A DNA stretch of 64,000 bases from Escherichia coli. Lineage in GTDB: Bacteria > Pseudomonadota > Gammaproteobacteria > Enterobacterales > Enterobacteriaceae. This document shows, piece after piece, positions 14,101-17,100 of this stretch. Made by a program: the position numbers. The stretch is from assembly GCF_003334815.1 (NCBI RefSeq), contig NZ_QOWO01000004.1; one strand, written 5' to 3'. Position 1 is the first letter of the stretch, and the number at the start of each line of letters is the position of its first letter.

Positions 14101-17100
14101 GCCTGAACCGGCGCTGCTACCGACGGGGAGAAATAATGATACGCCCCGCGCAGCAGGCCATTTTCGCGGCTTAGTTGCCAGTTACGCGAAAAATACGGGT
14201 CCACCAGCTTTTCGCCTTCCGTCGCCTTAATAAAAGCAAACTGTAAGCGGATACCGTTGTCGCGCATTTTTGCCACCCGCTGCCAGTCGATCCGCTCCTG
14301 CCAGCGAGAAACATCTATTCCGTGAATGGTGTAACTGGCAGGAATGCGAATAGCGAAAGATTTAACCGGGCGATAACCGTAGAAATGGATGTAGTCTGTA
14401 ATCTGAACTGCTGTCGAATAGAAAAAATTCACCGTCTGACGCGGATAAATTGCAACGATGGAAATTAGCCCAAGAGCGCATAATAGAGAGGTGAGTTTTT
14501 TTCGACTGGTAATTCTTAGCTGCATTGGTTTCATCCCTGAATGTCAGTGCCAAAGGCTGACAATAACCAAAGCAGCTATAGTACGGTGCTCACCACCAGG
14601 CGTGGAAGTGGTGAACCGGACCAATACCGTGACCAACTTCCAGCGTGTCGGCCTGGGCTAATGCTGATGAAAGCCAGCTTTTTGCCTCCTGTACGGTGTC
14701 AGCCCAGTTTGTATGGCGCGGGCGTAGTGCAGCCAACGCCGCAGAGAGCGTACAACCAGTGCCGTGGGTGTTTTTGGTCATAATGCGCGGTGCGGTAAAC
14801 CGTTGTTCACCCTCGCGGGTAAACAGCCAGTCCGGGCTTTGCTCATCATCCAGATGACCACCTTTCATTAGCACTGCGCCACAGCCCATCGCCAACAGCG
14901 ATCGCCCTTGTTCCAGCATTTCCTGTTCGGTGCGCGCGTGTGGCGCGTCGAGCAAGGCGGCAGCTTCGGGCAAGTTTGGCGTTATTAATGAAACCTGTGG
15001 CAATAATCGACTGCGCAGCGTAGCAACCGCCGAAGGTGAAAGCAGCGGGTCGCCGCTTTTTGCCAGCATAACGGTGTCGAGTACCACGTTTTGGATCTGA
15101 TAACGTTGCAACCGTTCTGCCACCGCTTCAACAATATCGGTTTCCGCCAACATACCGATTTTAGTGGTGTCGATTCGCACATCGCTGAACACCGAATCGA
15201 GCTGGGCGGCGACAAAATCAGGCTCAATGCGATACACCGACTGTACGCCACGGGTATTTTGCGCCACCAGTGCAGTAATAACTGAGCAACCATAAGCGCC
15301 AAGTGCCGAGAAGGTTTTAAGATCGGCCTGAATCCCCGCACCACCACTCGGATCAGTACCGGCAATCGTCAGAGCGTTAATTCGTTTCATGCCTGCACCT
15401 CCTGCGTCAATTGCCAGAGCGCATCAAGGAAATGTGGAACAAAACTGCCTGGCCCCTCGCTTCTGGCGACTGCGCGCTCTCCGGCTTGTTTCATCCAGTG
15501 ACAGGCAGATGCGACATTTTCCAGCATATCGCCTAGTAACGCACAACAGGCAGCAACAACCGCCGATAATGCACAGCCAGTTCCTACCACTTTGGTCATT
15601 AGCGGATCGCCACCGTGAATGCCAACGATACGATGCCCATCGGTAACATAATCCACCTCGCCTGTGACCACGACGATTGCGCCAGTTTCCCGTGCCAGTG
15701 TTTGTGCAGCGGGTATTGCGTTAGCTGCGGCGTCAGTGGTATCCACTCCCCGTCCACCATTAGCAACGCCAGCTAATGCCATGATTTCCGAAGCATTACC
15801 ACGTATGGCGGTTGGCTTATGAGACAGAAGTTCCAGACAAAAACGGCGGCGATAATCGAGTGCACCCACCGCTACTGGATCAAGCGTCCAGGGGGTTTGA
15901 GAGCTTTTTGCTTGCTCAACGGCGGCACGCATCGCCTGTGCGCGTGGCTGCGTCAGCGTGCCAACGTTAATCAGCAACGCACTAGCAATAGCCGCAAACT
16001 GACTGGCCTCTTCGGTTTCGATAACCATCGCTGGCGATGCACCGAGCGCCAGCAAGGTATTGGCGGTAAAGGTTTGCACCACATCATTGGTCATGCAGTG
16101 CACAAGAGGGGAATGTTGGTGAAAAAGGTGTAACGCGTGCGCAGATTGCGCTGAACCCAGCAGGTCGACTTGCATAGTTTGCTCCTGCCATAACGTGAAG
16201 AAGCAATGACCTGGTGGTCCGTGACTTCCCTACGCTGGCATTATCCAGATCAGGTGATACGGGTATTTCTCAGCCTTCACGCAGAAGGGCACCCCGAGTC
16301 GTTTGGTTGCGATGATAAATCGCAGAGGAGGATGGTAATGTCCAGCGCACGCGTTGTAAACGAGGAAAAACGGCAGTTTTACAATCGCGTTAATAAATTA
16401 TTTGATATATGAATCCAGCACCTTCAGAACGACATCCAGATCTTCTTCACGTTTTAGCTCATCCCCCTGGTGAACGATGTGTTCCGTCAGATGACCTTTA
16501 ATCACTTCCCGCATCAGACCGTTTACCGCGCCACGGATAGCAGCAATCTGTTGTAAAACTGCAGCGCATTCGTGCGGCTCGTCGAGCATTTTCTTGAGCG
16601 CCACGACCTGGCCCTGAATCTTACTGGCACGCGCTTTCAGTTTCTGTTTATCACGGATTGTATGAGACATGGCAACACCTGGTTAACAAGAATATGAAAA
16701 ATCATAGCACTATTAATCTACTGGGGGGTAGTATCAGGTACTGGGGGGGAGTAGAATCAGATTGCCGAATTAATACTAAGAATTATTATCATGACCGAAT
16801 TTACAACTCTTCTTCAGCAAGGAAACGCCTGGTTCTTCATCCCCAGCGCCATCTTACTTGGTGCGCTTCATGGCCTGGAACCAGGGCACTCAAAAACGAT
16901 GATGGCGGCGTTTATCATCGCCATCAAAGGCACCATTAAACAGGCGGTGATGCTCGGACTGGCAGCAACTATTTCGCATACCGCAGTGGTCTGGTTAATT
17001 GCCTTTGGCGGGATGGTGATCAGCAAGCGCTTTACTGCTCAATCAGCAGAACCGTGGCTCCAGCTGATTTCCGCAGTGATCATTATTGGCACCGCGTTCT

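Follow-up and report, generated by a model that had tools for sequence, protein, structure and literature searches.

The closest described counterparts of the two regulatory elements treated here are the thiM TPP riboswitch of Escherichia coli and the tandem operator of the Ni(II)/Co(II)-responsive repressor RcnR. The thiM aptamer has been crystallised with TPP (PDB 2GDI). The expression domain of this riboswitch has been probed in PMC1920254, and chemical probing of the TPP-free state found nucleotides 71-86 to be paired with nucleotides 108-125 (PMC1920254). TPP binding and the resulting repression have been published for a K-12 sequence identical to the one analysed here (PMC1920254, PMC2018614). 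Further TPP riboswitches are associated with thiC and with thiB/tbpA in the same organism. According to PMC4841613 and PMC11487190, the thiC riboswitch acts on transcription and translation and the tbpA riboswitch also affects the mRNA level; thiM is described as a translational switch.

For RcnR, the operator consensus and the presence of two sites go back to Iwig and Chivers (2009, J Mol Biol 393:514), as cited in PMC7055735, PMC3902906, and PMC7105576. There, the sites are classified as tandem type-1 operators, each of which is bound by a tetramer in a 1:1 ratio. According to the same papers, RcnR contacts the minor groove at the TACT/AGTA repeats and the G tract has A-form character. The apo-protein binds DNA and is released by Ni(II) or Co(II), for which these three papers cite Iwig and Chivers (2009) and Blaha et al. 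(2011).

In the window, meaning the whole 64,000-nucleotide stretch of E. coli DNA that was analysed, the two elements are neighbours. The segment 16100-16900 (801 bp) matches E. coli K-12 MG1655, along with many other strains, at 100% identity, and the RefSeq record of MG1655 carries thiM, the TPP riboswitch, rcnR, rcnA, and rcnB at corresponding positions, with the same coordinates for the riboswitch. The sequence had been described as native and intact in the initial annotation, and the identity to K-12 together with the matching RefSeq annotation bears this out. Over the whole window, the source strain is a non-K-12 strain, and the segment 16100-16900 represents the K-12 allele. The gene neighbourhood thiD-thiM / rcnR / rcnA-rcnB is of the E. 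coli type (Table 1). The flanking genes are intact, and thiD, thiM, rcnR, and rcnA all score above the curated cutoffs of their NCBIfam models. thiM is the first gene downstream of the riboswitch and is followed by thiD, the second gene of the riboswitch-controlled operon, which overlaps the thiM stop by 4 nt. The rcnR reading frame is matched by the RcnR equivalog model over residues 1-90 of 90 (197.3 bits against a cutoff of 138), whereas the FrmR model reaches only 76.5 bits against a cutoff of 133. The nearest solved relatives of RcnR are FrmR (5lcy and 5lbm, with an E-value of 6e-16 for the match to 5lcy) and InrS (5fmn).

Table 1. Positions of genes, regulatory elements, and candidate promoter elements in the window
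Feature	Position	Strand	Basis
thiD, hydroxymethylpyrimidine/phosphomethylpyrimidine kinase	14590..15390	-	ORF; TIGR00097 362.6 bits vs cutoff 205; RefSeq thiD of MG1655
thiM, hydroxyethylthiazole kinase	15387..16175	-	ORF; TIGR00694 337.1 bits vs cutoff 256.4; RefSeq thiM
thiM Shine-Dalgarno sequence GGAG (PMC1920254 numbering: nt 126-129)	16182..16185	-	sequence; folds
Anti-Shine-Dalgarno sequence CUUC, expression platform	16200..16203	-	constrained and free folds; agrees with the probing-based model of PMC1920254
TPP riboswitch aptamer (THI element), thiMD leader	16210..16306	-	Rfam RF00059; RefSeq riboswitch feature with the same coordinates
Candidate thiMD promoter, -35 TTTACA, 17-nt spacer, -10 TACCAT	16332..16360	-	promoter scan, 9/12 consensus matches only
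rcnR, Ni(II)/Co(II)-responsive repressor, CsoR/RcnR (DUF156) family	16398..16670	-	NF011613 equivalog; RefSeq WP_000019944.1
Candidate rcnR extended -10, TGcTATGAT	16701..16709	-	inference; conserved columns in 82 species
RcnR operator site 1, TACT-G6-T-AGTA, TACTGGGGGGTAGTA	16719..16733	.	exact pattern match; published consensus
RcnR operator site 2, TACT-G6-G-AGTA (G7 tract), TACTGGGGGGGAGTA	16739..16753	.	exact pattern match
Candidate rcnA -10, TAGAAT	16752..16757	+	inference; column conservation in 82 species
rcnA, nickel/cobalt efflux protein with His-rich loop	16791..17615	+	NF007454 557.5 bits vs cutoff 195; RefSeq rcnA
rcnB, accessory periplasmic subunit, downstream of rcnA	17834..18172	+	RefSeq rcnB of MG1655, position transferred to the window

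The thiMD leader had been annotated as carrying a THI-box, for which a scan with the TPP covariance model was named in advance as the check. In a cmscan search of the whole window against Rfam 15, RF00059 matched with 71.2 bits (gathering score 54.3) and an E-value of 5e-12. The alignment is full length (model positions 1-105 of 105) and not truncated, which confirms the assignment. Helices P1, P2, P3, P4, and P5 are present with 21 of 23 model pairs canonical; the optional P3a stem is absent, which is allowed by the model. The conserved junction sequences are represented by CUGAGA (16273-16268, minus strand) and by ACCUGA...GCGUAGGGA, and a 30-nt core, ACCUGAUCUGGAUAAUGCCAGCGUAGGGAA, extends over 16255-16226 on the minus strand. 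The aptamer is located 34 nt upstream of the thiM AUG on the same strand. The initial annotation let the regulatory region begin at 16190. This range includes the aptamer, but the expression platform with the Shine-Dalgarno sequence (16185-16182) and the start codon (16175-16173, minus strand) extends past its left edge.

Secondary structure prediction yielded two mutually exclusive pairings of the anti-Shine-Dalgarno segment. In the unconstrained minimum-energy fold, this segment forms a helix with the 3' half of the aptamer and the GGA of the Shine-Dalgarno sequence is unpaired; the paired segments (nucleotides 71-86 with 108-125) are identical to those in the published TPP-free model. When the Rfam aptamer pairs are enforced, GGAG pairs with CUUC, and the mean probability of the Shine-Dalgarno sequence being unpaired decreases from 0.30 in the free fold to 0.002. 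The computed alternation thus reproduces the accepted translational off-switch. In such a switch, the Shine-Dalgarno sequence would be free in the absence of TPP, with the aptamer 3' half paired to the anti-Shine-Dalgarno segment, and thiM and the overlapping thiD would be translated. Upon binding of TPP, the aptamer would close helix P1 and release CUUC, which would then pair with GGAG and block initiation of translation at thiM. The stability of the whole leader in an unconstrained fold is not unusual compared to shuffled sequences (z -0.84). This is expected because the switch is ligand-dependent, and it adds no support of its own.

The second element consists of two exact matches to TACT-G6-N-AGTA, which had been annotated at 16719..16753 and are found there, within the 120-bp intergenic region between the divergently oriented rcnR and rcnA genes. 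The two sites form a 15-nt direct repeat with a spacer of 5 nt, and the gaps between the operator edges and the ATG start codons measure 48 nt for rcnR and 37 nt for rcnA. They are the sole matches to TACTGGGGGGNAGTA in the 64-kb window even when two mismatches are allowed, and shuffled sequences contained a mean of 0.16 matches at up to two mismatches; for exact matches, the calculated expectation is about 5e-4 per window. The starts of the sites are 20 bp apart, corresponding to about two helical turns, so that both sites should be on the same face of the DNA. Following the literature, each site would be occupied by one apo-RcnR tetramer, with both rcnA(B) and rcnR repressed as a result, and binding of Ni(II) or Co(II) would remove RcnR from the DNA and switch on efflux.

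The architecture of this operator was compared among species by scanning 100,044 species genomes with the DNA pattern TACTGGGGGNNAGTA-N{0,15}-TACTGGGGGNNAGTA. Tandem operators were found in 82 species loci from Enterobacterales, Vibrio, Shewanella, and Chromobacterium. Because the operator pattern itself served to collect the loci, the specified operator bases are constant by construction; free to vary were the N positions, the spacing, the flanks, and the gene context. Although spacers of 0-15 nt were allowed, only lengths of 5 nt (64 of 82 loci) and 6 nt (18 of 82) occurred, which corresponds to start-to-start distances of 20 bp (64 species) or 21 bp (18 species) in a search range of 15-30 bp. 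The spacers themselves comprise 38 different sequences. The N position is a T in site 1 in 77 and a G in site 2 in 79 of the 82 loci, and directly to the right of site 2 the bases g-a-A are conserved, as seen in the anchored column conservation. In all 79 loci with any rcnR coding sequence, a divergent RcnR homologue with 58-100% identity is located 45-99 nt from site 1, and wherever rcnA was detected from its N-terminus, it begins at about 70 nt, counted from the start of site 1. A constrained operator architecture is strongly indicated by the fixed spacing and the gene context as well as by the N positions and the flanks. Judged from this sequence comparison, the 20-bp distance in the window appears consistent with RcnR binding; an inconsistent spacing had been named in the initial annotation as a refuting result. 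As small points, the comparison adds to the cited reviews that the spacing of the tandem sites is held to 20-21 bp and that, in the 82 species, the N position differs by site, with T in site 1 and G in site 2.

Chance matches or decayed relics without present function would be a different explanation for one or both features. Both elements are short, and activity cannot be proven from this region by itself; otherwise, no support for this explanation was found. Against it stand the E-value of the TPP match with all of its helices, an operator pair that is unexpected by chance and has a fixed spacing and gene context in 82 species, the identity to the experimentally studied K-12 locus, and the flanking genes, which are all intact and score above curated cutoffs. 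The probability of this explanation is therefore regarded as close to nil. Both the thiM riboswitch and the RcnR operators are intact, ordinary, and already known. The initial annotation had likewise called them known elements, in line with the identity to K-12 and with the RefSeq annotation of the riboswitch and the genes.

Candidate promoter elements are located at both edges of the operator. TAGAAT is a candidate -10 element of rcnA; it overlaps the last two bases of site 2, and its final T (16757) is near-invariant among the 82 species. On the other side, TGnTAnnnT (16709-16701, minus strand) is a putative extended -10 element of rcnR at a distance of 10 bp from site 1, in which TG, TA, and the final T are conserved columns in the same set. 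With both candidate -10 elements at the operator edges, RcnR bound to the two sites would be predicted to occlude both divergent promoters. Other candidates were rejected. A promoter-like match at 16686-16657 (minus strand) is within the rcnR coding sequence and another one at 16762-16789 (plus strand) would leave rcnA almost leaderless, and both misfit the conservation across species. TAGATT (16721-16716, minus strand) as a second candidate -10 element of rcnR is less likely, since its last T varies among the species. Two repeats were treated as chance. A 12-bp interrupted inverted repeat (16390-16378 with 16360-16349), which was considered as a terminator of rcnR or as a protein-binding palindrome, is located just past the rcnR stop and overlaps the candidate -35 element of thiM; as RNA, it has a folding energy of -11.7 kcal/mol, 74 of 200 shuffled sequences fold as well, and it is not followed by a U-tract. 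The direct repeat D2 (16309-16320 and 16387-16398, 83% identical) is short and has two copies only.

The initial annotation had presented the region as a compact regulatory hub with the two elements about 400 bp apart. The distance is accurate: 412 nt separate the aptamer from the operator at their nearest edges, and 273 of these are rcnR coding sequence. A functional hub would mean that Ni/Co-induced rcnR transcripts read through to the thiM leader, so that thiamine salvage is coupled to metal stress and the TPP riboswitch gates the read-through mRNA. Several observations are compatible with such a coupling. rcnR and thiMD are co-oriented, and 91 nt separate the aptamer (16306) from the rcnR stop (16398). 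In a terminator scan of 16100-16900, no intrinsic-terminator-like site was predicted, including the thiM leader, and the hairpin just past the rcnR stop is no stabler than shuffled sequences (z -0.31). In addition, cobalt reportedly damages Fe-S enzymes of thiamine synthesis (Thorgersen and Downs 2007), so that a link between metals and thiamine would be physiologically sensible.

The gene order, however, is the sole link found between the two elements, and it varies across species as well as within E. coli. Among the 60 testable species loci, which are those with at least 1.4 kb of sequence on the rcnR side, thiM and the TPP element adjoin rcnR in only five, namely in E. albertii, in one genome labelled as E. 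coli, in two other Escherichia species, and in an uncultured Erwinia MAG. The last of these speaks for a coupling insofar as rcnR, the TPP riboswitch, and thiM occur there independently in the same arrangement. In contrast, the module of operator, rcnR, and rcnA is the same in all testable loci, with or without thiM as a neighbour. Strain FRIK944 of E. coli O157:H7 has an insertion of about 2.2 kb exactly after the rcnR stop and before the riboswitch, with three ORFs on the opposite strand, and in a second O157:H7 genome the match to the window breaks likewise at the rcnR stop. In E. coli B, a genome island is located between thiM and mrp (PMC5487053). Furthermore, thiMD has a sigma-70-like candidate promoter of its own between rcnR and the aptamer (TTTACA-17-TACCAT, 16360-16332), and a full-text search on both names found no literature linking rcnR with thiM, the hits being the E. 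coli B island paper and an unrelated one. A functional hub is accordingly considered very improbable, and the designation as a hub is not upheld. The thiM riboswitch and the RcnR operators are almost certainly two independent, already characterised cis-regulatory elements that are adjacent by gene order.

Within E. coli, the operator of the rcnR-rcnA region occurs in several alleles. From 5,362 matching genomes, 60 records were sampled evenly, and 39 of these (about 65%) are exactly identical to the window over 16665-16800. Among the non-identical records examined, all indels in this segment are within the operator. The changes concern the length of the G tracts and the number of sites. Site 2 has a G8 tract in O121 strain RM8352 and in strains 2014C-3599 and SC492, and a G6 tract in two O111:H8 strains and in 2013C-3250. 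The tract of site 1 is shortened to G5 in strain ET5, and both tracts are shortened in strain 25DN. In strain 97_3250, the one genome that was read from the roughly 14 genomes of the 80-90% identity band, a 20-bp deletion fuses the two sites into one. In strain WW2, a 23-bp duplication results in three sites. The G8 allele is common and lineage-consistent: exact copies occur in at least 60 genomes, and several O121:H19 strains of different origin are among them. RcnA protein accessions are common to the genomes within the G8 group and likewise within the group of the G6 and one-site alleles, which argues that at least these alleles are inherited and are not random homopolymer errors. The operator in the window is the canonical K-12 allele, and the variant alleles belong to other complete E. 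coli genomes.

Since the operator consists of two direct repeats, each with a homopolymer of six to seven G residues, it could be a mutational hot spot whose alleles set lineage-specific basal levels of nickel and cobalt efflux. This is put forward as a tentative and rather doubtful suggestion; read-through from rcnR into thiMD is the less likely reading of the two. The natural operator variants could be used to test how the length of the G tract and the number of sites tune repression by RcnR. Apart from these variants, the value of the region is that of a positive control, as two well-studied elements are intact at the positions at which they had been annotated and have the expected scores. 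This indicates native E. coli sequence and accurate pattern recognition in the initial annotation.

Compared with the known systems, the riboswitch of the window is the E. coli thiM TPP riboswitch (RF00059) itself, at the same locus and with 801 bp identical to K-12; no difference was detected. The alternation computed here, in which the anti-Shine-Dalgarno segment pairs either with the 3' half of the aptamer or with the Shine-Dalgarno sequence, is the same as in the published model of the switch (PMC1920254). The thiC and thiB/tbpA riboswitches of E. coli share the aptamer class and the ligand with thiM (PMC4841613, PMC11487190). Likewise, the operator has the same consensus, the same number of sites, and the same location between the divergent rcnR and rcnA genes as the tandem type-1 operator of E. 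coli RcnR, without a difference in the window. CsoR proteins with type-2 operators and FrmR belong to the same regulator fold family as RcnR. Type-2 operators accommodate two tetramers and contain two short G/C tracts, the repeats being about 11 bp apart. In contrast, the sites in the window have an unbroken G6-7 tract with 7 bp from TACT to AGTA and occur as two in tandem, each of which would be bound by one tetramer according to the RcnR literature.

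The outer TACT and AGTA half-sites of the tandem RcnR operator, which lies between the divergent genes rcnR and rcnA, are extended by a 16-nt inverted repeat. Across species, conservation is higher in the outer flanks of the operator (tTcTACT ... AGTAgaAT) than in the inner spacer, a pattern that may be due to the divergent -10 elements or to flanking contacts of RcnR. Within E. coli, a comparison of complete genomes (loci L085-L094) with positions 16719-16753 of the window revealed that the operator is polymorphic. The length of the G-tract ranges from G5 to G8 in these genomes, a single operator site is left after a 20-bp deletion in strain 97_3250, and three sites are present in strain WW2 as the result of a 23-bp duplication. 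The G8 allele occurs in exact copies in at least 60 genomes, several O121:H19 strains among them, and is thus inherited and not an assembly error.

Positions of sequence and RNA elements in the window
Feature	Position	Strand	Description
Imperfect inverted repeat	16707-16722 and 16750-16765		16 nt, 75% complementary; arms bracket the whole tandem operator
Hairpin GCGAU-UUAUC-AUCGC	16309-16323	-	6 bp; just 5' of the TPP aptamer
OrzO-P antitoxin sRNA, first copy	35608-35681	+	RF02083, 88.8 bits
OrzO-P antitoxin sRNA, second copy	36216-36291	+	RF02083, 99.9 bits
Peptidase-S11 RNA motif	56721-56801	-	RF03039, 72.8 bits (gathering score 34.8)

On the far side of rcnR, the hairpin preceding the TPP aptamer is present in all computed folds of the thiM leader. 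Further RNA elements are located at a distance from this region. The two OrzO-P matches are separated by about 600 nt, an arrangement that points to a possible type I toxin-antitoxin locus of the tandem zor-orz kind. In the corresponding stretch of other genomes, yehK and yehL are the sole annotated genes. The genome that matches best is that of strain 52F4 rather than K-12; the window in its entirety is thus not from K-12. The Peptidase-S11 motif presumably serves as leader to a D-alanyl-D-alanine peptidase gene.

Outside Escherichia, thiMD and a TPP riboswitch (4926-5028) adjoin rcnR in an uncultured Erwinia MAG (L028), the sole such case among 60 testable loci, and their distance to rcnR is about the same as in E. 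coli. In Erwinia mallotivora (L021), thiM was not found within 9 kb on the rcnR side.

RcnA comprises 274 amino acids in the window and in K-12, and the gene of the O157:H7 strain FRIK944 has 858 bp (285 amino acids); as a guess, the difference would sit in the His-rich loop (window 17150-17240). An insertion site is located directly 3' of the rcnR stop codon (window about 16398-16400). In strain FRIK944 (L002, 9726-11998), about 2.2 kb encoding an HTH-like protein, a hypothetical protein, and an outer membrane protein are inserted directly after this stop codon. IS5 is present in strain ETEC4085, somewhere inside the stretch matching window 16100-16900. In E. coli B, an island is located between thiM and mrp (PMC5487053).
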